Below are positions 18,525 to 64,000 of a stretch of 64,000 bases of DNA, one piece after another (position 1 is the first letter of the stretch; every line of letters begins with the position of its first letter). The stretch comes from Pseudomonadota bacterium. Its GTDB lineage: Bacteria; Pseudomonadota; Alphaproteobacteria; MED-G09. The stretch covers positions 8,034-72,033 of the forward strand of contig JAYYUG010000097.1 of NCBI GenBank assembly GCA_036344135.1, in the 5' to 3' direction. Under the pieces are notes generated by a model. The model worked only from the letters and a program-made list of their open reading frames with translations. It did not search any database and was not told the origin of the DNA. The position numbers and the translations under genes are program-made.

Positions 18525-18553
18525 AAATAATTCTGGCCAGTACTGAGTAAAAC

Positions 18554-18913: not shown

Positions 18914-18971
18914 AATTTTCTCCTTTTTATAAAGCCTTAGTAAAATAGACTAAAGCTATAATCAATATTTA

Positions 18972-34595: not shown

Positions 34596-35342
34596 ATGAA
34601 ATTTTTTTTTAAATTCTCTGTTGTAATATTATCTTTTGTTGTTTCTTTCTCATCTTACTCTTGGTCAAAATCACCAGAATCTATCATTGATGAGGTTGAA
34701 AAGCTTTATCAAGGTAATTCAAGTAGAGTAAAGATAACAATGAAGATTGTTACAGAAGATTATGAAAGATCCCTTTCTTTACAAGGCATAACTGTCGGTG
34801 ATGATCTTGCGAATTTTCGAATTCTAACACCAAAGAAAGATCGGGGTGTAGCAACTTTGATGAGATTTAAAGAAATGTGGAATTTTCTTCCAAAAATTGA
34901 TCGCGTTATTAAAGTCCCACCTTCCATGATGATGAGTTCGTGGATGGGAAGTGATTTCACAAATGATGACCTTGTAAAACAAACTCATCTTTCAGAAGAG
35001 TATGATCTTACGTTATCTGAGAAAGAAGATAGTTACATAATAACTTTAATTCCTAGGGTTTCGACAGTTACTGTTTGGGGGAAAATTCAATATCATATAT
35101 TGAAAGAGCCTTTAATACCGACAAAGCAAATATTTTATGATGAAAAAGGAGTCGCTATTCGTCAGTTGGATTTTATTGATCCTAAAATTTTTGATGGGAA
35201 ACTATTACCCTCTAAACTTGTTATGGTTCCACTAAATAAAGAAGGTCATAAAACTATCATAATCTATGATTCAATTTCTTTTGATCCCGATGATATTTCT
35301 GAAGACATGTTTACCCTCAGATATCTTAAAAGGAGATTTTAG
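34596..35342 (+). CDS. Periplasmic LolA-like (outer-membrane lipoprotein-sorting-like fold) protein, secreted
   Basis: Signal peptide; ~250-aa beta-rich protein immediately upstream of an FtsX/ABC module; assignment tentative. Confidence 0.5.
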   Translation: MKFFFKFSVVILSFVVSFSSYSWSKSPESIIDEVEKLYQGNSSRVKITMKIVTEDYERSLSLQGITVGDDLANFRILTPKKDRGVATLMRFKEMWNFLPKIDRVIKVPPSMMMSSWMGSDFTNDDLVKQTHLSEEYDLTLSEKEDSYIITLIPRVSTVTVWGKIQYHILKEPLIPTKQIFYDEKGVAIRQLDFIDPKIFDGKLLPSKLVMVPLNKEGHKTIIIYDSISFDPDDISEDMFTLRYLKRRF

Positions 35343-37783: not shown

Positions 37784-37795
37784 GAGAAAGTACGT

Positions 37796-38497
37796 ATGTC
37801 TAGGGTTATTGAAATTGAAAATCTTACGCGCAAATATGGTAAGGGCATAGGAGAAGTTGTGGCAATAAATGAAATCTCCCTGAATATTGAGTACGGCGAA
37901 TTTACAGCAATTATTGGTCCTTCAGGTTCTGGTAAATCAACTTTACTTAATTTAATAGGGGGTTTGGATAAGTCCGATTCTGGTTGTGTCCTTCTGGCTG
38001 GAAAGGATATAGCAAAAATGTCTGGCTCGCAGATGTCAGATTTCAGAAGAGATCGTATTGGGTTTATTTTTCAGGCTTATAACCTGATTCCCGTTCTCTC
38101 AGCAGCAGAAAATATTGAATACATAATGCTTTTACAAGGTATTTCTTCGGTTAAACGTAAGGAACGAGTCCAAGAAATGCTATCTCTCGTTGGTTTGGAA
38201 GGATTAGGACATAGAAGACCATCCGAATTATCTGGGGGTCAACAGCAAAGAGTCGCTGTTGCCAGAGCAATGGCCTCCGAACCCGAAATTATCCTCGCTG
38301 ACGAACCTACTGCGAATTTGGACTCTAAAAATGGAATGGCCTTACTGGATATGATGAGACAACTAAACGAGGATCAAGGCGTAACCTTTATTTTTTCCAC
38401 ACATGATGAGATGATTATGAAACGGGCTCGCAGATTAATCCACCTTCGTGATGGTTTGGTTGCACTTGATGAAAGAAATAGTAATGCCACGCCTTAG
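37796..38497 (+). CDS. ABC transporter ATP-binding protein (LolD/MacB-type)
   Basis: Walker A GPSGSGKST, signature LSGGQQQRVAVARA, Walker B ILADEPT. Confidence 0.9.
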   Translation: MSRVIEIENLTRKYGKGIGEVVAINEISLNIEYGEFTAIIGPSGSGKSTLLNLIGGLDKSDSGCVLLAGKDIAKMSGSQMSDFRRDRIGFIFQAYNLIPVLSAAENIEYIMLLQGISSVKRKERVQEMLSLVGLEGLGHRRPSELSGGQQQRVAVARAMASEPEIILADEPTANLDSKNGMALLDMMRQLNEDQGVTFIFSTHDEMIMKRARRLIHLRDGLVALDERNSNATP

Positions 38498-39762: not shown

Positions 39763-41175
39763 ATGAGCGAGAGAATTAAAGAAAAAGAAGAAAATTTAGA
39801 ACCGGGAGAGGCCCGATCTCCATTTACAAGTTACACTGAATATTTAGAAGAAGACTCAAAAAAATTACCAGATTTTATGATGGACGAAAACTATGAGTTT
39901 CTTGGTTCTGAAGATATTTCAATGGAAAGATATACTTCCAAAGAATTCTTCAAAAAAGAAGCGGAATGCATGTGGACTAGAGTCTGGCAATTTGCTTGTA
40001 GAGTGGAAGATATTCCTGAGGTAGGTGATAGCCTAGTTTATGATATTCTTGATTACTCATTCCTAATAGTAAGATCTGAAGAAAATAAGATTCAAGCTTT
40101 TTACAACTCTTGCCTTCATAGAGGAAGAAAATTAAAAACAGAAAGAGGTATTAGTAAAGATATCGAATGCCCATTCCACGGATATTGTTGGAATCTTGAT
40201 GGTACATTGAAACACACACCTGCTGCATGGGATTTTCCTCATGTCAAAGCAGATAAGTGGAGCCTTCCAGAAGTAAGAGTTGAACTTTGGCAGGGTTTTG
40301 TTTTTATTAATATGGATGATAATGCGGTTTCTCTCGAAGAATATTTAGCCCCATTACCCGAACATCATGAAAGATGGAATTTAGCAGATTGTAAAAAAGT
40401 TATTCATGTTTCTAAAGTAGTCCCAGGAAATTGGAAAACGGTTCAAGAGGCTTTTATGGAAGCCTTTCATGCTACAAAAATTCATCCTGAGATACTTCCT
40501 TTCCAAGCTGATGAAAACGCAAGATATGATATTTATGGTGATCATATGAATAGAAACTTAGCTCTTGTTGGTAAGCCCGGACCCCATTGTTGGCCAGTTA
40601 CTGAACAAGAAATACTAGATACAATCTCTTATGGTTCTGGGAGGGTTTTTGATGAAAATAAGACTATAGTTCCAGAAGGAGAAGAAGCAAGAAAAGTAGC
40701 AGCAGAAGCTGCTAGAAAAGCTTATAATGAGGCTGATGGACATGATTACTCAGATAAATCCGACGCGGAAATGCTCGATGCTTTAGTCTATAATGTTTTT
40801 CCAAATTTTTCACCTTGGGGTGGATTTCCTAGAAATCTTATTTATAGGTTTAGACCAAATGGTACTAGAGAAGATTCAGCTATTATGGAAGCTTTCTTTC
40901 TTCAAAGGAATCATAAAGACCCTGAAAAACAAGAACCTTACGAACCTATTCCTATTCACTACCTTAGTGAAGATGAAAACTGGGATGACGCTGAAGAGTT
41001 AGTAGGTATCGGTTTCATATTTGATCAGGATATGTCAAATATACCGGAAGTTGAAAAAGGAATGAGAGCCTCAAAAAAAGGTGCAGTGACTTATGCAAAC
41101 TATCAAGAAAGCCGTATCCGTCATTACCATCAGACAATAGATAAATATATTTCTAAAGGACCTTTTAAACCTTAA
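39763..41175 (+). CDS. Rieske non-heme iron oxygenase, alpha subunit (paralog 3)
   Basis: CLHRGRKL...CPFHGYCWN; catalytic-iron motif EAFHATKIH. Confidence 0.9.
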   Translation: MSERIKEKEENLEPGEARSPFTSYTEYLEEDSKKLPDFMMDENYEFLGSEDISMERYTSKEFFKKEAECMWTRVWQFACRVEDIPEVGDSLVYDILDYSFLIVRSEENKIQAFYNSCLHRGRKLKTERGISKDIECPFHGYCWNLDGTLKHTPAAWDFPHVKADKWSLPEVRVELWQGFVFINMDDNAVSLEEYLAPLPEHHERWNLADCKKVIHVSKVVPGNWKTVQEAFMEAFHATKIHPEILPFQADENARYDIYGDHMNRNLALVGKPGPHCWPVTEQEILDTISYGSGRVFDENKTIVPEGEEARKVAAEAARKAYNEADGHDYSDKSDAEMLDALVYNVFPNFSPWGGFPRNLIYRFRPNGTREDSAIMEAFFLQRNHKDPEKQEPYEPIPIHYLSEDENWDDAEELVGIGFIFDQDMSNIPEVEKGMRASKKGAVTYANYQESRIRHYHQTIDKYISKGPFKP

Positions 41176-46406: not shown

Positions 46407-46778
46407 TTAGTCTACAAGACTTCCTTCAAACGCTTTGACTTCCTGAGGAAAAGAGCCTGAAAATTTATAAAAATTAAATAATCTCTCTCCTTTAGCATTT
46501 TTTATAGATATAAGTCCTTCACCACCTTTATCTCCTTTATCAGTACTCACTTCAACTTTACAAATATCATTCCAGTTAACATGGATATGGGTGTCGTCGT
46601 CAATATCTAGTCTATCTTCATCAGTCATCTCATTAATAAAAAATTTTCCACTCATATCAGCACTATAGCTTCCTAACTTTTCACTTTGGAATAATAATTC
46701 TCCGCACTCAAACAATGTCTCAAAAAACGCTCTTTGTTTATTACTGATTATTTTGTTCATTTTTCTATACCTAGTCAA
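46407..46778 (-). CDS. Hypothetical protein
   Basis: 123-aa ORF without recognizable motifs. Confidence 0.35.
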   Translation of the reverse strand: MTRYRKMNKIISNKQRAFFETLFECGELLFQSEKLGSYSADMSGKFFINEMTDEDRLDIDDDTHIHVNWNDICKVEVSTDKGDKGGEGLISIKNAKGERLFNFYKFSGSFPQEVKAFEGSLVD

Positions 46779-46838
46779 ATAAATCCCTAAACCAGGGAAT
46801 AATTGGAAATAATATCTCAGTAAACTAAGGTATTACAG

Positions 46839-46891
46839 CTAATTCTATTATTGTGCCATCTGGATCATAAAAGGCCACTATACCACTGGAA
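46839..46891. repeat. 53-bp perfect direct repeat, copy A (intergenic; encodes an orphan VOC C-terminal fragment ..SSGIVAFYDPDGTIIEL.. on minus strand)
   Basis: CTAATTCTATTATTGTGCCATCTGGATCATAAAAGGCCACTATACCACTGGAA identical to 48152..48204; flanks show decaying similarity. Confidence 0.85.
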
Positions 46892-46950
46892 TAATTTGAT
46901 GCATGATGATTATAAGAAATATTGGCCAAATTAATTAGATAGGAGAAATT

Positions 46951-48054
46951 ATGAGTGAATTGCAGACCTTAAAAAGAGATTTAACTAAGACCCGTATTGT
47001 TGATGGAGGCAGTGATCGAGTTAATTTAGATGAGGGAGAGATTGCAGTAAAAATTGAGCGCTTTGCCTTTACTGCAAACAATATAACTTATGGCGTTGCC
47101 GGCGATACGATGGGATATTGGCAATTTTTTCCATCATCAGATGATCCAACAGAGGAATGGGGGTGTATCCCTATGTGGGGGTTTGCTGAAATCAGTCATT
47201 CAAATAGTGAAAATTTAGAGGTTGGAGAAAAGATTTTTGGGTATTTTCCCCCAGCTAGTTTGTTAACCCTAAAACCAACAAAAGTTACTAATCAAAGTTT
47301 TAGTGATGGTAGGAATCATCGTAGGGAGCTTCCCCCAGTTTATAACAACTATGTGAGGCTTTCTGGTGAAGAAAATTATGACAACAAGATGGATAATATT
47401 AGGGCCCTTTTGTTCCCGCTTCACATAACATCATTTTGTTTATGCGACACTCTTCAAAATGAGTCGTATTTGGGGGCATCCCAAGTAATTATTATTAGCG
47501 CTTCAAGCAAAACAGCAATTGGTCTAGCTCAAGGTCTAGCAGATGAAGATCAAGCACCAAAAATTATTGGTCTTACCTCTTCAAATAATATTAATTTTGT
47601 TGAGAGCTTAGGTTGTTACGATGAGGTAATATCATATGATCAACTTGATATAGTTAATTCTAATAACCCAAGCGTAATGGTTGATATGGCCGGTAACAGA
47701 GAAATCTTGGGAACTCTTCATGAGTTTTTGGGAGATAATATGCTGAAGTGTTTTACCGTGGGAATGACCCACTGGGATAATAAAACGACAGCAGAAGATG
47801 CTCTAGGTCAATTGATGATTCGAGATCGGACTGAATTCTTTTTTGCTCCATCTCATATCCAAAAAAGAATTAGTGACTGGGGCTCAGAAAGCTATAACAA
47901 AAAAACCGCATCTTTTATGGCTTCTCGGGCAACTCAAAGTCAGGATTGGATGCAGGTAAAAGAAATCTCTGGCCTAGAGGATTTTTTAGGCACTTACAAT
48001 GAAGTTGTTGCGGGAAATATCAATCCTAATGAGGGAATAATTGTTGTTCTTTGA
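46951..48054 (+). CDS. Hypothetical protein with MDR/Rossmann-like features (possibly DUF2855-type)
   Basis: 367 aa; degenerate nucleotide-binding stretch IIISASSKTAIGLAQGLA; lies between the two 53-bp repeats. Confidence 0.45.
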   Translation: MSELQTLKRDLTKTRIVDGGSDRVNLDEGEIAVKIERFAFTANNITYGVAGDTMGYWQFFPSSDDPTEEWGCIPMWGFAEISHSNSENLEVGEKIFGYFPPASLLTLKPTKVTNQSFSDGRNHRRELPPVYNNYVRLSGEENYDNKMDNIRALLFPLHITSFCLCDTLQNESYLGASQVIIISASSKTAIGLAQGLADEDQAPKIIGLTSSNNINFVESLGCYDEVISYDQLDIVNSNNPSVMVDMAGNREILGTLHEFLGDNMLKCFTVGMTHWDNKTTAEDALGQLMIRDRTEFFFAPSHIQKRISDWGSESYNKKTASFMASRATQSQDWMQVKEISGLEDFLGTYNEVVAGNINPNEGIIVVL

Positions 48055-48083: not shown

Positions 48084-49463
48084 TCAATCAAATAAGTCTT
48101 TGAACCAGATGATAACTGGGAATAATATTCTTGCATAGAAAGGCATTTCAACTAATTCTATTATTGTGCCATCTGGATCATAAAAGGCCACTATACCACT
48201 GGAAGAATTTGGTCCATCACAACAAGGTGTTATATCTGAAATGAATTCAACACCTTGGGTTTTAAGAATTTCCACATCCTCTTCTAAATTACTAGTTGCT
48301 AAAGCGATCCTATGAATACCTAGATGATTAATAGGTATAGGATATGGTTTGTCTAAATCAAAAGGTCTTATCCACTGAACCAACTCCAATTTTGATTTGT
48401 CTTCATTGTGACTAAATAAACCTCCCTTTAATTCAATTTCTTTTTCAAACCCTAAAGCTTTAGAGACCTCAAGAGAATATTTATTAGGCTTTTCATGCAA
48501 TAGCTCGTAACCAAACATTTTATACCAAGATCTAGACCTTTCAAAATCACTCACATTAATTGTAACTTCTCCGAGGCTTTCAATGAAAGTAGTTTTAGTT
48601 TCTTGAAGTTTTCCTGATTTTTCTACTAACTTATAAAAAGTACCATCTGGATCTTTAAAAAAAACAAACTTTATACCTGTGGGATCAGTTACTGGGGTTG
48701 AAATAAAACTAATTCCATTTTCTCTCATATACTCATAGTCATGATCTAATTTACTCGTATACATAGTAGCACTAACCATACCAAGATGATTCAATCGCCT
48801 GTATGGAACATCTGCATTTCGAGGTATTTTAAATTCGATCAAATCTATAACACCGCCTTTAAAATTATTAATCCCTAGAAGTTCCCCGTAAAGAAGATAA
48901 CCCCCTGCTTCACCCCCTTGAGAACCATCGTAAGAGGTTGGATTCTTAATGCCCATAGCTCTTGCCATATCAAGAGTATTTGTTTCAGGAAAACCACTTA
49001 ATGATTCAAAACCTAAGATGCTATAAAAAGCCTTTGAAATATCAAAATCCTTAACATTTGTATTAAAATGAACACGAGATATTACATTCAAATTTATATC
49101 CGCTTTTTGCTTAATTCTTATAGAAATTTTTCCATCAGCAAGATTTTCAAAGTAAGTAGCTAAATCATTATTTTTAGAAAGCTTAATATCTTCTTTAAAA
49201 CATTTTTTTGATAAGTTTGTAACGTTTTGAAAAACTTGAATACCATTTAATTCTATTATCAGTTTTGTTTTTGAATCTGGAATACAAATATATAAATGAG
49301 CAGGACCACTTACTCCAAAGAAACTTACCTTATTCTGCTTATCATCATTAGGAAGGTGATGGGATAGATATCTAGTAAAATCTATCTCAACAGCATAAGA
49401 AATTTCAGAATATGAAATTAGATAAAAAACTACAAAAAAAATTTTAATAAGTTTTAGTATCAT
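48084..49463 (-). CDS. Secreted protein with N-terminal unknown domain and two tandem VOC/glyoxalase domains
   Basis: Signal peptide; two VOC modules (HLGMVSAT...FKDPDGTFYKLVE and HLGIHRIALAT...FYDPDGTIIELVE); its 3' end carries repeat copy B. Confidence 0.7.
   Translation of the reverse strand: MILKLIKIFFVVFYLISYSEISYAVEIDFTRYLSHHLPNDDKQNKVSFFGVSGPAHLYICIPDSKTKLIIELNGIQVFQNVTNLSKKCFKEDIKLSKNNDLATYFENLADGKISIRIKQKADINLNVISRVHFNTNVKDFDISKAFYSILGFESLSGFPETNTLDMARAMGIKNPTSYDGSQGGEAGGYLLYGELLGINNFKGGVIDLIEFKIPRNADVPYRRLNHLGMVSATMYTSKLDHDYEYMRENGISFISTPVTDPTGIKFVFFKDPDGTFYKLVEKSGKLQETKTTFIESLGEVTINVSDFERSRSWYKMFGYELLHEKPNKYSLEVSKALGFEKEIELKGGLFSHNEDKSKLELVQWIRPFDLDKPYPIPINHLGIHRIALATSNLEEDVEILKTQGVEFISDITPCCDGPNSSSGIVAFYDPDGTIIELVEMPFYARILFPVIIWFKDLFD
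48152..48204. repeat. 53-bp perfect direct repeat, copy B (within 3' coding end of the tandem-VOC gene)
   Basis: Identical to 46839..46891. Confidence 0.85.
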
Positions 49464-53590: not shown

Positions 53591-53764
53591 TTATTTCTCA
53601 GCGGCAATCCCTTTCTTCAAGGAACCTAATGCAATTACTGCTAACACAGTTAACAATAACCAAACTGATTTGCTAGGAACAACTAAGACACTAGAAATTA
53701 TTGCTGCTGCCCAAAGAATTGCTTGTGTAGTGATAATGTTCTTCAAAATAATTTTCCTTATCAT
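53591..53764 (-). CDS. Possible small two-TM membrane peptide (57 aa), not in ORF track
   Basis: ATG 53764 to TAA 53591; MIRKIILKNIITTQAILWAAAIISSVLVVPSKSVWLLLTVLAVIALGSLKKGIAAEK; no obvious RBS. Confidence 0.25.
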   Translation of the reverse strand: MIRKIILKNIITTQAILWAAAIISSVLVVPSKSVWLLLTVLAVIALGSLKKGIAAEK

Positions 53765-53986
53765 TAATTATATTTTATTCTAACGAAGCAGTACATATAA
53801 TAAATAGATTGTGCTAAGTAAAGATCAATTTTGATTGTCTAAAAGATAAGAAGAAATATAATACATCAAGAGGAAGTATTTATTTATCTTCTTTTATAAA
53901 TAGTTAATTTATCTTGATTTTGACATAATTATTTTTTATAGAAACTGAAGTATGAATATTTTATTTCTACAGAAGGAGTAAATTAA

Positions 53987-54385
53987 ATGAAGTTAGAAAA
54001 GTTTAAAAACTTTCGATTTAAAGCCCTTTTAGCTGTACTTATATTTTCTTTTTCTTCTGTGAGCTCTTGGGCAGCAATCGTTGATATAGGATATGTTGGC
54101 GAAGATGAAACTGAAATCGAAATAACAAGAGGGTATTCCAAACAACCTACTTTCCCGAGAAAAGCAATCAGACTCGGAAAAGAGGGATATGTAGTGGTCG
54201 AATTTGATATAGACACTGATGGTGCTGTTCTGGACCCCTATGTGGTCGTCGCAGTTCCCCAAGGAGTTTTTGAAAGAGCTGCAATTAAGGCTGTTAGAAA
54301 ATGGGTTTATGAAGCTCCTACTTACAATGGTCAATCAGTTAAAGCCAATAACGTCCAAGTTAAATTAACTTTTTCACTGAATTAA
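53987..54385 (+). CDS. Periplasmic TonB C-terminal-domain protein
   Basis: Signal peptide; PTFPRKAIRLGKEGYVVVEFDIDTDGAV...AAIKAVRKWVYEAP matches TonB_C fold signature. Confidence 0.6.
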   Translation: MKLEKFKNFRFKALLAVLIFSFSSVSSWAAIVDIGYVGEDETEIEITRGYSKQPTFPRKAIRLGKEGYVVVEFDIDTDGAVLDPYVVVAVPQGVFERAAIKAVRKWVYEAPTYNGQSVKANNVQVKLTFSLN

Positions 54386-54426
54386 CTTATGAGATTGTTT
54401 GAATTTACAAACAATCTAAGTTTAGC

Positions 54427-57423
54427 TTGATGTCTATTAGGGCTCAGCTACTCTTATTTGTAGTTATAGGTTACTTATTAATTGCCGTTGTCTTTTTCTT
54501 ATCCACTCAAACTAGAGATTCGATTCAGCAAGATGCTGCTGGTGAGTCCTTGGTTGTTCTTTATGAATCCGCCTGGTATCAGACATACAACAACACCTAT
54601 GATTTAATGGGTCGTTGGTTACCTGGTTACGGCGAAAAAGGAAATATATGGGATCCCGATGACGAAACATTTATAGATGAGGTAGATGCACAGGGAAAAT
54701 ATTTAAACCCAATATTCAATACGATAGAAAACAGATCATTGGGAGATCTTCAGTATCTAATTGAGTTTATCTTCGAAGAAGAGTTAGACGAAGGTGACTT
54801 GAGTTTTGTTATGGCTTATTTTCCCACTGGCGAAAGATTTTACTGTGGAAGCGCCTTAGATTTGCTTGGTATAGATCCTTGTAGCCCAAAAGCGAGACTA
54901 GGGTTTTTCTCATATCTCGACTCCTACATAAAAGATATTTCACAAAGACCTAAACAATCTACTCTCAAGATTCTTGATTCAGAAAACAAGCAGACAACAA
55001 CTCTTAATCAAACTTATTCTTTTCCAATAAAGGTGAACAAAAAAACAATTGCTTTGATAGTTCTAGGGGTTGATGTACGAAAGGCAATTGAGGTTTTTGA
55101 AGATGAGTTTGAAGTAAGAACCGGTATAAAAACTCCTGAGGGTTTAATTTCCTTAGAGGAAGATTATTCATCCGACGATTTGAATATCGAAGCAAGATAC
55201 GGTATAGAAAATTACTCAGAGTTGGTTGCAAAGGCTAACCTTCTTATGGAATCGAAAGGAAGTAGATACAGCGACAAAGATTTTTCTCTTGGTACCTCAA
55301 TTACTCTGTTACCTTTAAGTTCATATCTTTCCTCTGACAAGGCAGAATTATTTATTTTTAAAGATGAGAAGATCTCAATGGCTAGATCTTCTGAGGTTCT
55401 TACGAGAAGCTATATTATTGTAACTTTAATGCTTTTGCTTATTGTCTCTTTAACCTCATTCGTCACTTACCGGACATTCGGAGGTATAACAAGAGCAATT
55501 AAAGTTTTAGAAGGTCTTACAAAAGGTGATCATACTCAACAAATGCCAAAAAGATCAGGTCTGATGGCTTCTGAAAATGATGAAGTAGGTCAACTATCAA
55601 CTGCTCTTCATAGCTATAGAGGTCATTTATTGGAGATGGAGGATATTAGAAAAGAACAAGCCCAAAGAAGAAAAGAAAGAGACAGAGTTATTATTGAGAA
55701 GATGTCTTTTCTAGCTGATCAACTAGAGGGAGACGCACAAAAACTTATTCTTGAGGATGTCGAAAAAATGACAGAACTGGCAAAGAAGGGTGATGATGTG
55801 GACTCCGAAGAGGCATCAGTCGAATTAATGTCTCTAGCATTCTCTCGAATGTCTGATGAAGTAAATGCTTTGATCGCAGCAAGAACAACTGAGATGGAAT
55901 CTTCCAGAGATGAAGCAAGGGACGCTAATGAAGAAAAGACAAGATTTTTCGCAAACATGAGTCATGAACTTAGGACTCCGCTTAACGCTATTTTAGGATA
56001 CGGAGAGATGCTTGCAGAAGATTGTGAAGACCTGGGTTATGATGATCTTTTGCCTGACTTAAAGAAAATTACTTCTGCAGGTAGTCACCTTCTCTCATTA
56101 ATCAACAATATTCTGGATATTTCAAAGATTGAAGCAGGAAGGATGGAGCTCTATTTAACCAGTTTTGAAATAGAATCCATGGTGGAGACAATTAAAGATG
56201 TTACCGGACCTTTAGCCTCTGCTAATGATAATGGTTTTAAAGTCAATTTACAGGACGTTTTAGGATCCATGACTCAAGATGAAACAAAGATTAGACAATG
56301 CTTGACCAACTTCTTGAGTAATGCATTTAAATTCACTTTAAGTGGAACGGTAACTCTTGATGTAGATACTTTCATGCAAGACGAATTAGAAATGATCAGG
56401 TTCGCGGTAACGGATACGGGCGAAGGAATGACAGAAGAAGGTCTCAGTAAAGTATTTAGGGAATATGAGCAAGCTGAAAGATCAACATCTGCTAAACACG
56501 GTGGTACTGGTCTAGGTCTACCTATCACAAAGAAACTCGCAGAAATGATGGGAGGAGATGTAATGGTTACCAGTGAGCTTGGAGCGGGGTCAGTTTTTAC
56601 CCTTTATGTTCCAAGAGTATGTCCACAAGAACACGATGAAGTAGAGGACGCTAATGCAATAAGCAAACTCTCTGATAAGGAGAAAGTAGTTGTCTTAATT
56701 GATGATGATGTCCCAATTCATGATATTATTAGAAGGACTCTATCAAAGATTGGTCTCACTCTTATCGGTGCAACTGATGGTGAAAAAGGCTTACAAATAG
56801 TCAGAGAAATGAAACCCAAGCTTCTTTTATTAGATGTCTTGATGCCTGGTAGGGATGGATGGTCTATCCTTAAAGAGTGCAAGTCTGATCCTGAACTAAG
56901 AGATATGCCAGTAGTTATGGTCAGCCAGCTATCACAGGACGTTCTTTCAGAATCATTAGGTGCGGATGATTATCTTACAAAACCTATCGATAGAGATTTG
57001 TTTCTAGAAACTGTCCAACGACTAATTAAAGATTCTCCGAATGGCGAAAATAAAGTTCTTGTTATTGACGATGATGCTGATGTCAGAGAATTACTTTCTA
57101 GGATGCTTAAGGATGCAGGATGGATTTCAGTAACAGCAAGAGATGGTAAAGAGGGTCTGGAAAAAGTAAAAGACACACCTTCGTTAATAGTTCTTGACCT
57201 TGAGATGCCGCGAATGGATGGATTTGAATTCTTAGATGCCTATATGAAGAACTATAACGAGTTAAACCGTGCACCTATACTGGTTTACTCTGGAAAAGAT
57301 CTTTCCGAAGTTCAAAAAGATATTTTGAATAAGAATGTCGCCGGTATGGTTAGAAAAGATGAGGTTTCAATGGATGAACTCTCAAAAATTGTGAAAAATA
57401 TTTATCAAGAATCTATCTCCTAG
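54427..57423 (+). CDS. Hybrid sensor histidine kinase (periplasmic sensor-TM-HisKA-HATPase_c-REC-REC)
   Basis: Two TM segments flanking a ~300-aa periplasmic domain; H-box FFANMSHELRTPLNAILGY; N/G boxes; two receiver domains (VLIDDD...LLDVLMPGRDG and VLVIDDD...LDLEMPRMDG). Confidence 0.9.
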   Translation: MMSIRAQLLLFVVIGYLLIAVVFFLSTQTRDSIQQDAAGESLVVLYESAWYQTYNNTYDLMGRWLPGYGEKGNIWDPDDETFIDEVDAQGKYLNPIFNTIENRSLGDLQYLIEFIFEEELDEGDLSFVMAYFPTGERFYCGSALDLLGIDPCSPKARLGFFSYLDSYIKDISQRPKQSTLKILDSENKQTTTLNQTYSFPIKVNKKTIALIVLGVDVRKAIEVFEDEFEVRTGIKTPEGLISLEEDYSSDDLNIEARYGIENYSELVAKANLLMESKGSRYSDKDFSLGTSITLLPLSSYLSSDKAELFIFKDEKISMARSSEVLTRSYIIVTLMLLLIVSLTSFVTYRTFGGITRAIKVLEGLTKGDHTQQMPKRSGLMASENDEVGQLSTALHSYRGHLLEMEDIRKEQAQRRKERDRVIIEKMSFLADQLEGDAQKLILEDVEKMTELAKKGDDVDSEEASVELMSLAFSRMSDEVNALIAARTTEMESSRDEARDANEEKTRFFANMSHELRTPLNAILGYGEMLAEDCEDLGYDDLLPDLKKITSAGSHLLSLINNILDISKIEAGRMELYLTSFEIESMVETIKDVTGPLASANDNGFKVNLQDVLGSMTQDETKIRQCLTNFLSNAFKFTLSGTVTLDVDTFMQDELEMIRFAVTDTGEGMTEEGLSKVFREYEQAERSTSAKHGGTGLGLPITKKLAEMMGGDVMVTSELGAGSVFTLYVPRVCPQEHDEVEDANAISKLSDKEKVVVLIDDDVPIHDIIRRTLSKIGLTLIGATDGEKGLQIVREMKPKLLLLDVLMPGRDGWSILKECKSDPELRDMPVVMVSQLSQDVLSESLGADDYLTKPIDRDLFLETVQRLIKDSPNGENKVLVIDDDADVRELLSRMLKDAGWISVTARDGKEGLEKVKDTPSLIVLDLEMPRMDGFEFLDAYMKNYNELNRAPILVYSGKDLSEVQKDILNKNVAGMVRKDEVSMDELSKIVKNIYQESIS

Positions 57424-57782
57424 CTTATTAAGCTTTCGATTTTTTCGAGAAGTCTTTTAAAATCTATAGGTTTTGTATCAAAATCATCTGCTCCGCACGC
57501 CAAAGCCTTTACTCTATCGGACTCTAAAGCGTGTGCTGTCAAAGCTATAATTGGTATCTCTTTAATTTCATCATCTGCCTTTGCAGTTGTTGTGGCCTCC
57601 CAACCGTCCATGACCGGTAATCCCATATCCATTAGCACTAGATCAGGTTTCTCAGATTTCATCATCTCAATTCCTTCTTTTCCGTCAAGGGCAAGGAAAA
57701 CCTCATAATTTCTTCTTTGAAGCCTTCTTGATAACATATCTCTATTCATTTCGTTGTCCTCAACATATAATATCTTTGCCAT
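57420..57782 (-). CDS. Single-domain response regulator (CheY-like REC)
   Basis: ILYVEDNEMNRDML...DLVLMDMGLPVMDG...ALTA...K. Confidence 0.9.
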   Translation of the reverse strand: MAKILYVEDNEMNRDMLSRRLQRRNYEVFLALDGKEGIEMMKSEKPDLVLMDMGLPVMDGWEATTTAKADDEIKEIPIIALTAHALESDRVKALACGADDFDTKPIDFKRLLEKIESLIS

Positions 57783-57795
57783 CTTATTTCCTTTT

Positions 57796-59265
57796 TTAAT
57801 TATTCAAAATAAACTTATCTCTTCCTGTCTTTTTCGCTTCATAAAGCCTCTTGTCTGCCTTATTAACTACATCAGAGATATTTCCAGATTCAGATGTTAA
57901 CGCTATTCCTCCACTCGCAGTGATAGTAATTGATTGACCTTCGTAATCAACTTTAACAGCATGAATACTAGATCTCAATTTATCGCAAAATTCAGAAATA
58001 TTTTTACCATCCTCATTAAAGATTACCGCTAAAAACTCTTCACCGCCGATTCTACCAACAATGTTAGGTTCAGAAATAAAGCTGTCTAAGGTATTAGCTA
58101 GAGCCTTCAAAACCTCATCACCTCCAGAATGACCATAAGTATCATTGACTGTCTTAAAGAAATCTATGTCAATCATAATAACTGTAAAATCTTTACGCTT
58201 TCCATCTTGTAGTTCTGAATATGCGTCTTCAAGAGTTTCGAAAATAACTCTTCTATTATGAATCCCTGTTAGTTGATCGGTGGTGGCTTGGATATGAAGC
58301 GTATTAACAAGCTCCTTTTCCCTTTCTCGAAAGAACTTTCTTTCCAAGGAAGATATAACTTTGGCTAATAATATAGTACCGTTAAGAGGTTTGGGAAGAT
58401 AATCTTGAGCTCCCAATTGTATGCATTTAGCAATTCCATCTACATCATTAAATGCAGAAACCATAATTATTGGGAGATTTTCGCTTCTGTTGTCCTTTCT
58501 AAATCTCTTAAGTAACTCCAATCCATTAATGTCGGGCAGTATTACATCTAGAAGAATTAGATCAGGTAGTTTTTTATTAACCTCCTCAATAGCACTATTT
58601 CCATCATAAGCTATTCTGCAATTCAAGCCCTGCAATTCAAGCCTTCTTTTAAGAACCTCACAATTAGTAACATTATCATCAACTATTAAAATATCTGCAC
58701 CCTGCAAGCTTTCATCTAAGTCGAGAGAAAAATCTATATCACCCAGAGATTTAAACAAAGATTCAGCAGTTTCTAATTGTGAAGAACCTTCATCATTTGT
58801 TTTTGAAGGCTCTCCTCGGATATAATCAACAAAAGTCTCTATGGCTTTCTCAGTCTCTCTGGAAAGATTTATTATCTTGTGGAAATCCAATAAGGCCTCC
58901 TTCGACAAATCGTCCTCTAAATCTTCTATTAGAATTTCGCTATAACCAATAATGGCATTTAGAGGGGTTCTTAGATTATGCCTTAACTCTGAATACTCCT
59001 CCGGTTTTCTTTCTTCTGTGGTAGCATTTGACCCGGTATTTTCTTCGAAAGCTTCCTCATATTGTTCAATAAGTTTAATACAACCTGATTTAATCTGATC
59101 TATCTCATCCCCAGCAGCAATATTGGCCTCGTTGATACTTTTTTCAATCATCTCTAGATAATCAGAGATTGCACCTACAGGAGTAGTGAATTCTTGTTTA
59201 ATCTGAGCTAAAATAATATCTCTAGCCCCTTTGGGAGCTTTATTTCCTGTGACCTTACTCATCAT
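57796..59265 (-). CDS. HisKA-like (x2, no ATPase) - REC - GGDEF diguanylate cyclase
   Basis: N-terminal H-box-like segments (QEFTTPVGAISDY lacking His; ELRHNLRTPLNAIIGY with His); REC ILIVDDN...LLDVILPDINGLE; GGDEF with GGEEF active site and RxxD I-site-like region. Confidence 0.85.
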   Translation of the reverse strand: MMSKVTGNKAPKGARDIILAQIKQEFTTPVGAISDYLEMIEKSINEANIAAGDEIDQIKSGCIKLIEQYEEAFEENTGSNATTEERKPEEYSELRHNLRTPLNAIIGYSEILIEDLEDDLSKEALLDFHKIINLSRETEKAIETFVDYIRGEPSKTNDEGSSQLETAESLFKSLGDIDFSLDLDESLQGADILIVDDNVTNCEVLKRRLELQGLNCRIAYDGNSAIEEVNKKLPDLILLDVILPDINGLELLKRFRKDNRSENLPIIMVSAFNDVDGIAKCIQLGAQDYLPKPLNGTILLAKVISSLERKFFREREKELVNTLHIQATTDQLTGIHNRRVIFETLEDAYSELQDGKRKDFTVIMIDIDFFKTVNDTYGHSGGDEVLKALANTLDSFISEPNIVGRIGGEEFLAVIFNEDGKNISEFCDKLRSSIHAVKVDYEGQSITITASGGIALTSESGNISDVVNKADKRLYEAKKTGRDKFILNN

Positions 59266-60349
59266 GATTTCCGATTAAAGTATCCAAAAACTCAGGTTTA
59301 TGCATAAGAAAACCCTGACCTATTTTGCATCCAATCTTTACCATGGAGGCTTTCTGTTCCTCTGTCTCTATGCCTTCTCCTATCATTTCTAATGAAAGGG
59401 AGTTGCAAACTTCAACTACAAATTTAATAAGTTGTGCTGTTGATTTATCATCTAATCCATTAGTAAAATGTTTATCCAGTTTAATGACGTCTAAGGGAAG
59501 ATCTTTGACATATTTAAGTGATGCATAACCAGCGCCAAAGTCGTCTAACGCAATTTTTATTCCTTTTTCTTTAAGTACATTTAGATATTTACTTGCCTTC
59601 ATAGTATCACTTAATTCAGCAGTCTCAGTTACTTCAAGTCCAAATTCTCCGGGTTCAAATTCAAAACTATCAGCAAAATCTGCAAATATTTTGCTGAACT
59701 CTGGGTGCATAATCGTATGAGCAGAAACATTTAAATATACAGTTGCGTTTTTCAGACCAATTTTATTTTTAACAGGAAATATTTCTGAAAGTTTCTTCAA
59801 AGATGATTTAACAACAAGAGAAAATAGACTTTCTCCTTCAATTTGAGGAATTATTATGTCATTAGGGATAATTTTACCCTCATCATCTCTTAACCTCAAC
59901 AGAGCCTCAACACCTGTCACTTCTCCCGTTTCTAGATTAAACTGCTTTTGATAAGCTAAATCAATACGGTCATACTCTACACAGGATATTGTTTGTTTGA
60001 GGGCTTCCAATCCAAGACGTGATTCACACAAAACCTCTATAAGTAGGAAATTATCAGAATCCTCTGAGGGGATTAGGTGAATTCTAGTTGTTATATAAAA
60101 TTCGATTTTTCGAAGACATATTTCAATAGAAGTGGAATAGGTGTTAGCTATTAAATCTTTGGAAGATTGAGAGTCTTCATCTATTTTAATATTTTTTATT
60201 GTTAGGTCAGATGTGTTTCCTGTACGAAATATGTACTCAGACGCCAGATTTATCCACTTAATGGTTCCATCTGTTTCACAGATAATGTAAGGGCTCGGAT
60301 GATGCATTAGAGATTTGAATAAATAATCTAGGTGATTTGAAGAATCCAT
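59255..60349 (-). CDS. EAL-domain c-di-GMP phosphodiesterase with N-terminal sensory domain
   Basis: EALLR, DDFGAGYAS, KLDKHF, GEGIETEEQ catalytic motifs. Confidence 0.85.
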   Translation of the reverse strand: MDSSNHLDYLFKSLMHHPSPYIICETDGTIKWINLASEYIFRTGNTSDLTIKNIKIDEDSQSSKDLIANTYSTSIEICLRKIEFYITTRIHLIPSEDSDNFLLIEVLCESRLGLEALKQTISCVEYDRIDLAYQKQFNLETGEVTGVEALLRLRDDEGKIIPNDIIIPQIEGESLFSLVVKSSLKKLSEIFPVKNKIGLKNATVYLNVSAHTIMHPEFSKIFADFADSFEFEPGEFGLEVTETAELSDTMKASKYLNVLKEKGIKIALDDFGAGYASLKYVKDLPLDVIKLDKHFTNGLDDKSTAQLIKFVVEVCNSLSLEMIGEGIETEEQKASMVKIGCKIGQGFLMHKPEFLDTLIGNHDE

Positions 60350-60359
60350 TTCCGAGCCT

Positions 60360-60815
60360 TTAAATTTTATTTCTTTGTTCTTCTACAAGCTTAACAAAAT
60401 TCTTGGGAAACGTTGGAGACACCCAATCCCAAATTTCGAGGTTCTTTTTATCTCTTAAGAGGGTTCTAAATGATGATAACATTGCTATCCATTCTTCCTC
60501 ATCTAGCATACCAATAACATATTGATAATGTTGGTTCTGTCTTGCTCTTAAAATGGCTGTAAAGTGGGTTAGGTATATTGAGTTCTCTTCTTCATCAAGT
60601 TCTTCACCTTTTCTCAGTTTTACTTTGATCTTTACGATATCTTTATTAAGTCCAGCTAATGTTAGTTTTTGGTGACTATCAGCCATATTTTGCCGAGCAT
60701 TAGCTCTCGCAACTCTATTTTGCTCCTTCAGCTCTGTAACAAGGAAATAGACCGTTACAAGAACAGTAAAAGGACCGACAGTCTGGAGAATTATTACTAT
60801 TGTCTCAAAACCCAT
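60360..60815 (-). CDS. Hypothetical membrane-anchored protein
   Basis: 151 aa; single N-terminal TM helix, charged coiled region. Confidence 0.4.
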   Translation of the reverse strand: MGFETIVIILQTVGPFTVLVTVYFLVTELKEQNRVARANARQNMADSHQKLTLAGLNKDIVKIKVKLRKGEELDEEENSIYLTHFTAILRARQNQHYQYVIGMLDEEEWIAMLSSFRTLLRDKKNLEIWDWVSPTFPKNFVKLVEEQRNKI

Positions 60816-60992
60816 AAGCAGACTCCTTACTCATAATTTTAATCATAATTTTCCTTATAGCTAATTATATTTTATTCCAACTCAATAGTACATATGAGAA
60901 AAAGCGTATGATTAGCAAATATTTTACAAAATAAAGTGTTGTTGTTAATATCGATGGTGCTGTTGTCAAGATGGCTGGGGGAATCTAAAACC

Positions 60993-62417
60993 ATGAAAGT
61001 GATCAAAGCAAAAGATATGAATTATAAAGCCAACGGTGATGGTCCCACCTTGCAAAAAGTTTTTGATGGTGACAGCATCCAACCACCAGCAGCCTTTCGA
61101 GAAGACCCCAGTATGGAACTGGGTACAGCTGACATCTCTATCGATCGTTACACTTCCCAAGAATGGCATCAAGCCGAAGTAAAGAATGTCTGGCAAAAGG
61201 TTTGGCAGGTTGCCTGCCGATTAGAGGAAATCCCCGAGATAGGCGACTACGTTGTCTACGACATTGTAGACGACAGCTTAATCATTACCCGTACGAGTGA
61301 AAACGAAGTACATGCCTATTTTAATGCCTGTCTGCATCGTGGGAATGCTCTATGTATGGAAAATGGCCATGCCGAGAAATTCCGCTGTCCTTTCCATGGT
61401 TTTACTTATTCTTTGCAAGGCAAACTTGAATCTATCCCCAGTGACTGGGATTTTCAGCATGTCGACAAGAATGAATATTCCTTGCCCGAGGCCAAGGTCG
61501 GTTTTTGGGGTGGTTTTGTCTTTGTTAATCTCGACCCGAATTGTGGGTCTCTGGAAGATTATCTGGAGATCATCCCTAAGCATCTTGATGGATTTGATTT
61601 TGATAAAAAGTATAAGGCTATCCATTTATCTAAGGTGATGCCGTGCAATTGGAAGGTCTGCCAAGAGGCCTTTATTGAAGGCTATCATGTCGCCGAAACC
61701 CATTATGAACATACAGCTGATGGTGGTATCGACCCAGATGGTATTGGCTCCTTCATGGATGATGTAATGATGCAATATGATGTCTGGCCTGAAAGCAAGC
61801 ACGTGACCCGCATGATCCTGGCAAGCGGTGTCGCCAGCCAACATGTCGCTAAGCACGACCGGTCCGAACAACACATTATCGATATGATGTTACACTATCT
61901 GCCTGAAGACCAACGCCCGCAGTTGAAAGAAGGTGAAAAGGCCCGCCCTGCCCTTGCTGAACATAGCCGAAAAACACTTGGTGCCTTGTATGGCGTTGAT
62001 CTATCGCAACACAGTGACACAGATGTTCTAGACCAGGTGGAATACACACTTTTTCCAAACTTTACCTTTTGGCCAACCCTGTTTGCACCGTTGCTGTATC
62101 GTTTCAGGCCCCACGGCCATAATGTCGATGAAAGCATCATGGAAGTGTACATGCTTTATCCTATCCCCGAAGATGGACGAGACTATAAAACAAGTGAAGA
62201 AGTACGGCTGGCACCCGGTGAAACGTGGTCTTCACGCTCCGAACTTGGTAATTACGGCCCTATTCTCGACGAAGACACTCCCAATATGATCCGCATGACC
62301 AAAGGGCTGAAGACATCGCGTAAGCCGGGAATCACTCTCGCCAACTACCAGGAAAACCGCTTGCGCCAGTTTCATGGAGTTTTGGATGATTATGTTGGCG
62401 GGAAATACAAGAAATGA
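60993..62417 (+). CDS. Rieske non-heme iron oxygenase, alpha subunit (paralog 4, in GC-rich island)
   Basis: CLHRGNAL...CPFHGFTYS; catalytic-iron motif EGYHVAETH; ATG 60993 with GGGGAA RBS preferred over upstream GTG 60936; GC ~50% vs ~37% background. Confidence 0.85.
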   Translation: MKVIKAKDMNYKANGDGPTLQKVFDGDSIQPPAAFREDPSMELGTADISIDRYTSQEWHQAEVKNVWQKVWQVACRLEEIPEIGDYVVYDIVDDSLIITRTSENEVHAYFNACLHRGNALCMENGHAEKFRCPFHGFTYSLQGKLESIPSDWDFQHVDKNEYSLPEAKVGFWGGFVFVNLDPNCGSLEDYLEIIPKHLDGFDFDKKYKAIHLSKVMPCNWKVCQEAFIEGYHVAETHYEHTADGGIDPDGIGSFMDDVMMQYDVWPESKHVTRMILASGVASQHVAKHDRSEQHIIDMMLHYLPEDQRPQLKEGEKARPALAEHSRKTLGALYGVDLSQHSDTDVLDQVEYTLFPNFTFWPTLFAPLLYRFRPHGHNVDESIMEVYMLYPIPEDGRDYKTSEEVRLAPGETWSSRSELGNYGPILDEDTPNMIRMTKGLKTSRKPGITLANYQENRLRQFHGVLDDYVGGKYKK

Positions 62418-63295
62418 ACCCCGGTATAACTGCCAAGGTCAGTAGTAGAGTCGGACTGGACCTAACAATTAACCCTCTTTCCGAAGGCGTTGCATATGCA
62501 ACCTCAGACGTTTGGACTCTTGGAGGATGGAAAATTCAATTCGTCCACATTGGCCCTGGTCAACGCTTGGAACTTAACCAGGCTGATGGCACCATCTATA
62601 TAAAGATTATTCTGGGTGACCTGATAAACCTTGAACAAGAGCGATTTGCACCCCCCAAACAGGCTAGAGATACGCTGGTGACAACAGACTTTGTAGATGC
62701 CGGTGTTGCGGGTGCTCTTGTAACTGTCATCATAGAAACAAGTATAGTTGCCGACAATATCCACTCCATGGATGAAGTCACTTTCAAAGGACCTTTCAGC
62801 GAAGAGTTTAAGTGGGTCCAATTTGACCAGAGTCATATCGGCAAGAGCATTCCTTATTTTAAGGGTCTTGATGCCTATCTATTGCCTGGCTTCCACCTGC
62901 TCGATACCAAGGGTGATGAAATAATCTATGTGCACTTTTGGTCGGCTGGTAAAGGTGTCGACATGTCACCCCACGACCATTCATTGGCCCCCACCAAGAA
63001 CGCCCCTGCATTCACTGAAACCCACTGGGTCTTTAACAACGGTACGGGAAAGGGAGGTATGTATGATTGCGACCCCACCGACCGGAGAAAGCGAACCTAT
63101 ATAATCATGCAACGGGGGCAAGACCATGGCCCATTCTGGGTAATTAACGAAGACACGGGCATGCCCAGATTACGGGAAAATGGCGCCATAGAATTTGGTT
63201 TCCATGGTTGGCAGGCGGGTAACGATAATGAGCCCCAGCAAGCCTATGACCTGGTAGGCGCTTTCGAAATGAACCAAGCGCACTCAAAAGTTTAA
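62414..63295 (+). CDS. Uncharacterized 293-aa protein translationally coupled (ATGA overlap) to Rieske oxygenase; possibly metal-binding beta-barrel
   Basis: No P-loop, Rossmann or Fe-S motif; His-rich HFWSAGKGVDMSPHDHS segment; same elevated GC as upstream gene. Confidence 0.55.
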   Translation: MNPGITAKVSSRVGLDLTINPLSEGVAYATSDVWTLGGWKIQFVHIGPGQRLELNQADGTIYIKIILGDLINLEQERFAPPKQARDTLVTTDFVDAGVAGALVTVIIETSIVADNIHSMDEVTFKGPFSEEFKWVQFDQSHIGKSIPYFKGLDAYLLPGFHLLDTKGDEIIYVHFWSAGKGVDMSPHDHSLAPTKNAPAFTETHWVFNNGTGKGGMYDCDPTDRRKRTYIIMQRGQDHGPFWVINEDTGMPRLRENGAIEFGFHGWQAGNDNEPQQAYDLVGAFEMNQAHSKV

Positions 63296-63340
63296 GACGT
63301 CTTTTCTTGCACAGTCCAACTAATTTTACCTGTTAAAGCC

Positions 63341-64000
63341 CTATTTGATTGTGTTAATAAGATCTACATAACCTTTAACAAGGTTGTTTGATCTTGGTCC
63401 GCCTAATATGTCTTCTTCCATCTTATATGGCGTATAACAAAATGAGGTGCGAGAATCCATATCAGCTATAGACAGCGACCCTCCCCATCCAGACCAAAAA
63501 ACAACATTTCTATTTCCAAAGTACCCGTGCCATATGTCTGAACTATCATCCTGAAGTGAGAAACCCAAGCCCCATACCACAGATGGACCCAACGCAAGAT
63601 CTTCTCCTCTTATTTGTTCATTTAAAGCCATTTTTACAATCTCATCAGATAATAAATTTTTATCGTGAGATACTCCTCCATTTGCCATCAGAGCCATACA
63701 TTTAGCCATGGATCTTGCGTTCCCGTGACCGTTACCAGCTGGAATTTCAGCTTTTCTCCATTCTTCAGTTAAAGCATCTGAAGGTTGTATCATTCCATTA
63801 ACAAATGTTTTTTCTGCAATAGAGCCGGGCCTAAGCTCCAGCATATCTGTTGGATTTGGATTATCTGGCATATGGATTTCTGCAACTCTATTAAAATGAG
63901 ATTTATCAAGTCCGATATGAAAATCAGCTTGCAAAGGATCTGCAATATTTTCTTTAAAAAAGGCTCCCAAACTCTGTCCGGATATTCTTCTTACAACCTC
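63341..64000 (-). CDS. Serine hydrolase of the beta-lactamase/esterase family, C-terminal part (N-terminus beyond right window edge)
   Basis: Reading frame continues past 63970 (ORF-track M there is a TTG); C-terminal FWSGWGGS-type motif as in PF00144 proteins. Confidence 0.5.
   Translation of the reverse strand, partial: EVVRRISGQSLGAFFKENIADPLQADFHIGLDKSHFNRVAEIHMPDNPNPTDMLELRPGSIAEKTFVNGMIQPSDALTEEWRKAEIPAGNGHGNARSMAKCMALMANGGVSHDKNLLSDEIVKMALNEQIRGEDLALGPSVVWGLGFSLQDDSSDIWHGYFGNRNVVFWSGWGGSLSIADMDSRTSFCYTPYKMEEDILGGPRSNNLVKGYVDLINTIK

Follow-up and report, generated by a model that had tools for sequence, protein, structure and literature searches.

A Rieske oxygenase–bicupin islet, probably acquired by horizontal transfer, in an AT-rich marine bacterial genome

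The DNA analysed here, called the window throughout, is a stretch of 64,000 nucleotides from contig JAYYUG010000097.1 of GenBank assembly GCA_036344135.1. Near its right-hand end, two adjacent genes encode the alpha subunit of a Rieske non-haem-iron oxygenase and a bicupin, and together they form a sharply bounded segment of raised guanine-plus-cytosine (GC) content. This segment is very probably a small horizontally acquired gene cassette, here termed an islet, rather than a mobile genomic island of the classical type. An initial annotation, made from the letters of the window, had proposed that a two-gene catabolic module was recently acquired by an AT-rich, streamlined genome. The composition of the segment, its phylogeny and the corresponding loci of relatives all uphold the acquisition, and the word “recent” holds in part, as described below. 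That the module is “catabolic” and the host “streamlined” we infer from gene context and from the SAR86 labels carried by relatives.

Composition of the Islet

The GC content of the window as a whole is 36.9%. In 1-kb sliding windows it climbs to 46–47.5% between 61.0 and 63.5 kb, which is the maximum of the window, the next best value anywhere being 43%. Maximum-likelihood segmentation with two boundaries separates an inner segment with a GC of 0.478 from an outer part with a GC of 0.355. The two change points (Table 1) have 2-lnL ranges of 60951–61086 on the left and 63255–63610 on the right, and they match a two-gene operon at 60993–63295. Both the GC-rich island of the initial annotation and the agreement of its edges with the operon ends are thus confirmed, and by sliding windows and segmentation the rise is unique in the window. 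The strong rise to about 50% GC given there stands as a rise, but its actual level is 47–48%; a recount over 60-nt lines gave 33–62%, with a mean of 47.7%.

The excess GC is concentrated at third codon positions. The Rieske gene has a GC of 0.466 and a third-position GC (GC3) of 0.474 (GC3 z = 5.6), and the cupin gene has values of 0.482 and 0.490 (GC3 z = 6.1), compared to a GC3 of 0.273 ± 0.035 with a maximum of 0.361 in the 56 other open reading frames (ORFs) of the window. First-position GC (GC1) is also up in the islet genes, with a z of about 1.6. Second-position GC (GC2) is normal, which means that the GC excess does not come from amino acid content. The neighbouring genes have a GC of 0.336 (EAL), 0.353 (a gene for a 151-amino-acid (aa) protein) and 0.387 (beta-lactamase-family gene, GC3 0.271).

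Oligonucleotide and codon usage deviate as strongly. The tetranucleotide distance of the island has a z of 8.7 against 235 background windows, and after normalisation for GC it still has a z of 3.0, exceeding the maximum of those windows. Relative synonymous codon usage (RSCU) is 1.78 for CTG, 1.14 for GGC and 1.66 for CCC, compared to 0.32, 0.50 and 0.51 in the host, so that the enrichment of these three codons noted at the outset is real. The RSCU of the two genes correlates with that of the host at only −0.01 (z = −11) and 0.13 (z = −9), while background genes reach 0.83 ± 0.07. In base composition, codon usage and oligonucleotides, both genes are foreign to the window.

The Two Islet Proteins

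The first gene encodes a protein of 474 aa. Its true start is the ATG at 60993, in agreement with the NCBI record MEE3295606.1 and with all homologues; the GTG at 60936, implied as the start by the initial annotation, is wrong. The Pfam profiles Rieske (PF00355) and Ring_hydroxyl_A (PF00848) match the protein at 56.7 and 62.5 bits, above their cut-offs of 20.3 and 24.9. The Rieske motif C113-L-H115...C132-P-F-H135 and the iron motif H232-x4-H237 are intact and invariant in 28 homologues, and D426 and D428 are invariant candidates for the carboxylate iron ligand. An AlphaFold model of the protein (pLDDT 88.7) has the generic Rieske-oxygenase fold. Judged by its domains and motifs, the protein is the alpha subunit of a Rieske non-haem-iron oxygenase.

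Rieske alpha subunits that combine PF00355 and PF00848 include the biphenyl and naphthalene dioxygenases and the monooxygenases CntA, Stc2 and GbcA. The window protein resembles them in both Pfam domains, in the CxH...CxxH and H-x4-H motifs and in overall fold. It differs from them in its low identity, its equivalog scores below cut-off, the lack of an adjacent beta-subunit or reductase gene, and its bicupin partner. Solved structures share 15–20% identity with it, at a template-modelling (TM) score of at most 0.61. The best named NCBIfam equivalog is GbcA (NF058607), which reaches 123 bits of the 670 required by its cut-off and covers residues 52–240 only. The identities GbcA, CntA and phenylpropionate dioxygenase were each rejected, as the protein is about as similar to aromatic dioxygenases as to quaternary-amine monooxygenases (15–20% identity). 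No beta-subunit, reductase or ferredoxin gene was found in the operon by ORF and Pfam analysis; a 2Fe-2S ferredoxin gene lies at 18186–18524, 42 kb away.

The second gene, whose start overlaps the Rieske stop codon by ATGA, encodes the 293-aa partner that the initial annotation had left as unknown. By Pfam, PDB and fold comparison, this partner can be assigned to a family. The profile PF18637 (AUDH_Cupin) matches with E = 5.5e-28 and 98.7 bits (cut-off 25) over profile positions 29–308 of 308, and residues 465–731 of the 900-aa chain of the fungal aldos-2-ulose dehydratase/isomerase (AUDH; PDB entry 4A7K) match with E = 3e-17. The structural model (pLDDT 91.7) has 4A7Z as its top Foldseek match, with a TM score of 0.82, E = 5e-24 and 25% identity, compared to at most 0.32 in TM score for other bicupins. 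Residues H187, H189, E202, H204, H238 and H264 are invariant, and the motif G-x5-H187-x-H189 with E202-x-H204, which is invariant in 16 homologues, aligns with HNH...EIH of AUDH. On the evidence of profile and model, the protein is a PF18637 AUDH-type bicupin in which the predicted metal-binding residues are conserved. The family is tiny: 1.84 billion proteins include 171 representatives at a threshold of E <= 1e-3, and 27 when the threshold is E <= 1e-30.

Only three dehydratases of the cupin superfamily are listed as characterised, and AUDH is among them (PMC4795551). Over its full 293 aa, the window protein can be superposed on the bicupin domain of AUDH from Phanerochaete chrysosporium (PDB 4A7K, 4A7Y and 4A7Z). 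The fungal enzyme is a multi-domain protein of about 900 aa, reportedly described by Claesson et al. in 2012 as having an N-terminal beta-propeller and a C-terminal lectin-like domain as well, whereas the window protein is a bacterial bicupin alone, translationally coupled to an oxygenase. An identity as AUDH proper, which acts on 1,5-anhydro-D-fructose or glucosone, was rejected, since 293 aa cover only the 465–731 portion of that enzyme.

Probable Foreign Origin of the Gene Pair

The window contains three native Rieske paralogues, with a GC3 of 0.22–0.33. The closest of them is 38% identical to the islet protein and equal to it in length, and has a GC3 of 0.223 and an RSCU correlation with the host of r = 0.94. 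With such host-like composition in the native paralogues, the protein family does not dictate high GC. In a neighbour-joining tree, these paralogues fall far outside the clade of the islet Rieske protein. That clade has two branches, one uniting L005 (GC 0.58) with the proteins P0004 and P0003, and the other leading from P0002 through L010 (GC 0.56) to a sequence of the host population, which is sister to that of the window. The clade members with known DNA (L010, L005 and the L050-type context of P0002) all come from genomes of 55–58% GC.

The distribution of the cupin agrees with this picture. Cupin relatives are encoded at 34 loci in a scan of 185,579 species genomes, and only one of these loci, L009, is low in GC. 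Its flank has a GC of 0.369 compared to 0.476 and 0.494 in the gene pair, and it is sister to the window (91% and 96% identity). In all 32 other scorable loci the GC of the cupin gene equals that of its flank, and those genomes have 44–69% GC. The closest non-host relatives with DNA are L050–L052 (GC 0.55, cupin 64% identical) and L010 (GC 0.56, Rieske 83% identical), and a metagenome scan with the cupin partner of P0002 found only related contigs of 55% GC and contigs of the host population. For both proteins, then, the closest non-host relatives reside in genomes of 55–58% GC, where they are compositionally native.

The two genes do not always occur together. At L050 and L051 (9357–10888), and likewise at L052, a TetR gene is followed directly by the cupin gene without the gene for the 474-aa Rieske protein, in a neighbourhood shared with the P0002 contig. 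The Rieske–cupin coupling is therefore not obligatory. At L010 (3–1963) the Rieske protein is 83% identical to that of the window and the cupin 51%, and on the P0002 contig the values are 84% and 65%. Since the pair is unstable and the L010 cupin is far less similar than its Rieske partner, the two genes may have partly separate histories within the donor-like clade.

The Locus in Related Genomes

To the left of the islet, the gene for the 151-aa protein is the last in a conserved block that encodes a TonB_C-hybrid histidine kinase, a response regulator (RR), a GGDEF protein, an EAL protein and the 151-aa protein itself. Related loci L043–L049 (GC 0.35–0.39), with 151-aa genes that are 83%, 80% and 74% identical to that of the window, keep this block from TonB_C through the 151-aa gene. 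No Rieske or cupin homologue was found at these loci within ±10 kb. Abutting the 151-aa gene in these relatives is a block of about 10 kb that encodes NosD-like, MFP, ABC, three FtsX, RraA and amidohydrolase proteins and is missing from the window and from L009. Relatives thus show the pair to be absent beside neighbours that were kept, although what they display is a synteny breakpoint and not a scarless empty site. Moreover, in a set of 5.8 billion proteins the Rieske clusters leave the range from 84% to 96% identity empty, a gap which argues that abundant relatives lack an orthologue altogether.

Across SAR86-like relatives, synteny in this region is confined to the interval from TonB_C through the 151-aa gene (53987–60815), and what lies on either side of it varies between genera. 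A LolA-like/FtsX/FtsX/ABC cluster at 34596–38497 of the window is distantly similar to the cluster of the relatives, with 47% identity in the ABC protein.

The edges of the islet are formed by a host-like intergenic region on the left and a short spacer on the right (Table 1), so that the foreign DNA consists essentially of two reading frames. The left region contains a promoter-like site, TTTACA-17-TAATAT with TG, at 60923–60951 on the plus strand, and no terminator-like site was found in the 45-bp right spacer. There are no tRNA genes in the window, no mobility-related Pfam families such as integrase or transposase in the scanned window ORFs of at least 100 aa, and only short chance repeats that span the island. 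With integrase, transposase, tRNA gene and bracketing repeats all missing, a canonical mobile genomic island was rejected.

Fixation and Amelioration

The islet occupies the identical site with the same junctions at L001–L004, L009, L053 and L054, and in the consecutive accessions METZ01_LOCUS44477-44481. The three host sublineages that carry it differ by 5–8% at the nucleotide level, and because site and junctions are the same in all of them, the acquisition predates their split. Synonymous divergence (dS) between sublineages is 0.30 and 0.37 in the island compared to 0.13–0.25 in the flanks, or about twice as high. The ratio of nonsynonymous to synonymous divergence (dN/dS) is 0.07 for the Rieske gene and 0.11 for the cupin gene, which indicates that both are maintained by purifying selection.

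Substitutions were polarised by comparing the window, L053 and L009, and only changes of reliable polarity were counted. (L054 could not take the place of L053 as the third lineage, since it shares about 99.9% identity with L009.) In the island, 71 changes run from GC to AT compared to 25 from AT to GC (p = 3e-6), which implies an equilibrium GC of 0.24, near the GC3 of the host. The corresponding numbers in the flanks are 19 and 14 (p = 0.49). The pair has a GC3 of 0.47–0.51, compared to about 0.61–0.69 in the closest sampled relatives and 0.27 in the host, so that amelioration has gone roughly halfway to host GC3 if the donor resembled those relatives. The islet is still ameliorating toward host composition. 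The transfer can therefore be called recent on the timescale of amelioration, but at least three sublineages separated only after the islet had arrived (dS 0.30–0.37), and in them it is fixed and partly ameliorated.

Alternative Explanations

The extent of amelioration bears on a variant in which the transfer was real and recent, came from a donor of intermediate GC content (about 47–50%) and was followed by negligible amelioration. Islet codons are indeed unlike those of L005 at 58% GC, with low CCG and CTC and high GGT, GAA and CAA; distant cupin homologues at 48–52% GC exist in Pseudomonadales (L028, L030–35), and the true donor is unsampled. Such a donor is nevertheless unlikely, as relatives with DNA that are closer than 60% (cupin) or 70% (Rieske) are all found in genomes of 55–58% GC. 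Residence has been long enough for a dS of 0.30–0.37 to build up among host sublineages, and the GC3 of the window copy (0.47–0.49) is already below that of L009 (0.51–0.52). The 2.8:1 excess of GC-to-AT changes in the islet means, moreover, that some amelioration must have occurred. The direction of these changes also speaks to the idea that the genes are native and owe their synonymous GC to selection, either as highly expressed genes or through mRNA structure. If selection were maintaining GC, the islet should not be losing it (71 changes compared to 25), nor should its synonymous divergence lie above that of the flanks instead of below. The islet Rieske protein falls inside a high-GC clade that is distant from the three native paralogues, whose composition is normal, the pair is absent at the locus in low-GC relatives, and GC1 is raised as well (z about 1.6). 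A native origin is accordingly very improbable, even though C-ending codons are often favoured in highly expressed genes of AT-rich bacteria and the islet is enriched in mainly C-ending codons (CTG, GCC, ACC, ATC, CCC and CGC, with GAG, CAG, CCG and GGG low). Pfam scans of the window found neither ribosomal nor other highly expressed genes that might have provided a control.

A higher-GC fragment misjoined into a SAR86-like contig, as an assembly or binning chimera, would also produce a sharp step in composition. Contigs of metagenome-assembled genomes (MAGs) can be chimeric, the same population carries conflicting bin labels (Rhodobiaceae, Gammaproteobacteria, Dehalococcoidia and Rickettsiales), and L053 shows a different left-hand join. 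The same junctions are present in independent assemblies, however, and we regard a chimera as excluded for practical purposes on that account: both recur across projects and assemblers, at L001–L004 (ENA, Logan), L009 (a Tara MAG) and L054 (UINC01) and in the NCBI MAG. In addition, a 293.8-kb contig carries proteins of both flank and island. A chimeric fragment would not have co-diverged with its flanks between sublineages as the islet has, and the islet GC3 of 0.48 matches no sampled donor (0.61–0.72).

Several observations weigh against horizontal acquisition from a high-GC donor or against parts of it. There is no clean empty site, as an unrelated block of about 10 kb occupies the islet position in relatives; because they carry this different block, insertion and rearrangement are inseparable. 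Absence of the pair from relatives covers ±10 kb, and beyond that distance it is suggested by the gap in protein identity. The donor is unsampled, the nearest sequences being 83–84% identical for the Rieske protein and 65% for the cupin. The tree was built by simple neighbour joining and has no bootstrap support. High CTG, GCC and CGC with low CCG and CTC would also fit a donor of about 47–50% GC and little amelioration. The contrast in substitution direction between island and flanks is marginal (Fisher p = 0.08), owing to the small flank sample. The SAR86 assignment of the host comes from the labels of related MAGs, and other bins of the population are labelled otherwise. Finally, a reductase gene is absent next to the Rieske gene, and the function of the pair is read wholly from homology and gene context.

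Proposed History, Function and Significance

Acquisition as a cassette from a higher-GC bacterium would have proceeded as follows. An ancestor of the AT-rich (about 37% GC) marine population, most likely of the SAR86 clade, would have taken up about 2.3 kb of DNA, consisting of two translationally coupled genes from what was probably a proteobacterium of roughly 55% GC. This DNA would have been inserted at a point of differing gene order, and since neither integrase, tRNA gene nor island-bracketing repeats are present, illegitimate or flank-homology recombination is the likely route. The cassette then became fixed and has been kept by purifying selection, with AT-biased mutation in the host eroding its GC-rich third positions.

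Conservation of the ATGA overlap and of the gene order in L009, L005 (71% and 57% identity) and the P0002 contig (84% and 65%) suggests that the Rieske and bicupin products work together. The Rieske enzyme would hydroxylate an organic substrate, presumably with electrons from a ferredoxin and a reductase of the host. The co-translated, metal-dependent bicupin would then dehydrate or isomerise the oxygenated product, and the pair would add one oxidative step to an oxygenase-rich genome region. The most economical model appears to be oxygenation, with dehydration or isomerisation as the probable second step. In other lineages, neighbours of the cupin gene encode oxygenases (a luciferase-like monooxygenase, a P450 and a different Rieske enzyme) and the beta-oxidation proteins acyl-CoA dehydrogenase, enoyl-CoA hydratase and thiolase.

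More tentatively, the pair may be an undescribed, self-contained two-step module that moves between marine bacteria as a bare cassette and gives one SAR86-like subclade a specific dissolved organic compound, perhaps alicyclic or anhydro-sugar-like, that its relatives cannot use; we consider this a possibility to be entertained with some doubt. No description of the Rieske–bicupin pairing or of the islet was found in literature on SAR86 Rieske enzymes, AUDH cupins and horizontal gene transfer in SAR86.

The concept of compositionally atypical, horizontally acquired gene clusters that undergo amelioration is said to go back to Lawrence and Ochman. Like such clusters, the islet has a sharp GC and GC3 step at gene boundaries, foreign codon usage, a conflicting phylogeny and a patchy presence among relatives, as well as substitutions toward the host with third positions changing most. 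It differs from them and from canonical islands in comprising only two genes in 2.3 kb and in lacking an integrase, a tRNA gene, an insertion sequence and bracketing repeats. Nor is it strain-specific, being fixed in sublineages of the uncultured marine population that have diverged from one another.

In the surface ocean, SAR86 bacteria belong to the most abundant of the uncultured heterotrophs, and it is believed that their small genomes partition dissolved organic matter between ecotypes. The islet is a case of a streamlined lineage gaining, fixing and slowly recoding an oxygenase module, probably from a higher-GC bacterium. It can serve to tell one subclade apart from its relatives and, as a natural reference, to calibrate amelioration in AT-rich marine genomes. 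The phenomenon is a textbook one, horizontal gene transfer, and changes no concept, and the cargo of the islet belongs to known protein families. The enzyme pair is specific and testable, the bicupin comes from a tiny and almost unstudied family, and the Rieske–bicupin pairing is the part most worth attention.

Host and Genomic Setting

Window proteins are found unchanged as MEE3295604-07 on a 75.7-kb contig of an NCBI MAG named “Pseudomonadota bacterium”, and also in many Tara, JGI and ENA assemblies. Two independent MAGs contain orthologues of the 151-aa and EAL proteins, with 70–80% identity, under the label “SAR86 cluster bacterium”, and one SAR86-labelled relative sits on a 1.5-Mb contig. 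On the strength of these labels, the host is treated here, with moderate confidence, as a SAR86-clade gammaproteobacterium. Readings of the host as Rhodobiaceae or as an alphaproteobacterium of the PS1/Parvibaculales group were dropped in view of the SAR86 labels in the two MAGs and the 1.5-Mb contig of the relative. In public bins, near-identical proteins of the population are labelled Pseudomonadota, Rhodobiaceae, Gammaproteobacteria, Dehalococcoidia and Rickettsiales, and these conflicting labels are a sign of mis-binning or stale taxonomy.

Table 1. Coordinates of the islet, its genes and the adjoining features in the window.
Feature	Position	Strand	Basis or remark
Compositional island	61031..63285	no strand	Maximum-likelihood change points, sliding-window GC, tetranucleotide z = 8.7
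Rieske non-haem-iron oxygenase alpha subunit (predicted), 474 aa, MEE3295606.1	60993..62417	+	Pfam, motifs, tree
Stand-alone AUDH-type bicupin (predicted), 293 aa, MEE3295607.1	62414..63295	+	PF18637, PDB, model
Left-edge intergenic region, AT-rich, host-like, 177 bp	60816..60992	none	Composition; conserved in L009
Right-edge intergenic spacer, 45 bp	63296..63340	none	Cupin and beta-lactamase-family genes converge
Native left neighbour, lineage-specific 151-aa protein, GC3 0.289	60360..60815	-	No Pfam family
Native right neighbour, class C-like beta-lactamase-family serine hydrolase	63341..64000	-	387 aa in full; window end cuts gene
78-bp direct repeat, two copies 77% identical (core 30/33)	53748..53825; 60845..60922	none	Repeat search

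The local concentration of oxygenases in the window is striking. It encodes four Rieske alpha subunits (12798–14144, 16342–17697, 39763–41175 and the islet gene), three of which are compositionally native. Other oxidative genes include a P450 and a flavin monooxygenase (8426–9589 and 22323–24191) and the 2Fe-2S ferredoxin mentioned above, and the window also encodes desaturases, an amine oxidase and a TonB-dependent receptor. Steroid-catabolic genes have been described from SAR86 genomes (PMC4810484).

Internal repeats are few in the window, three in all, and the 78-bp direct repeat is one of them. Its copies bracket not the island but the 7-kb signalling block that runs from the TonB_C-hybrid kinase through RR, GGDEF and EAL to the 151-aa gene. 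Both lie just upstream of gene starts on the minus strand, and by this position the repeat may be a shared promoter or 5′ leader. Contig L053, which comes from the same population, joins 53803 directly to 60833 with a single hybrid copy of the repeat (L053 8380–8500) and without the 7-kb signalling block. This loss could reflect a true deletion polymorphism, or the assembler may have jumped from one repeat copy to the other. Together, the repeat and the loss of the block in L053 point to a recombination-prone neighbourhood.

Two further features of the window lie apart from the islet. A SAM-I/IV riboswitch on the minus strand at 20251–20347 (51 bits, above the gathering score) is located upstream of a minus-strand cluster at 18186–20120 that encodes a fatty-acid-desaturase-like protein, a bacterial globin and the 2Fe-2S ferredoxin, an unusual cargo for a SAM riboswitch. 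In addition, a 130-bp direct repeat (46775–46904 and 48088–48217, 82% identical) flanks a DUF2855 gene at 46951–48054. The copy at 46.8 kb duplicates the final 43 or so codons of a glyoxalase-family gene at 48084–49463 in a decayed form that contains an internal stop, and the repeat has the look of a scar left by an old insertion at the 3′ end of that gene. At the site of this repeat, L053 has about 650 bp of extra sequence.

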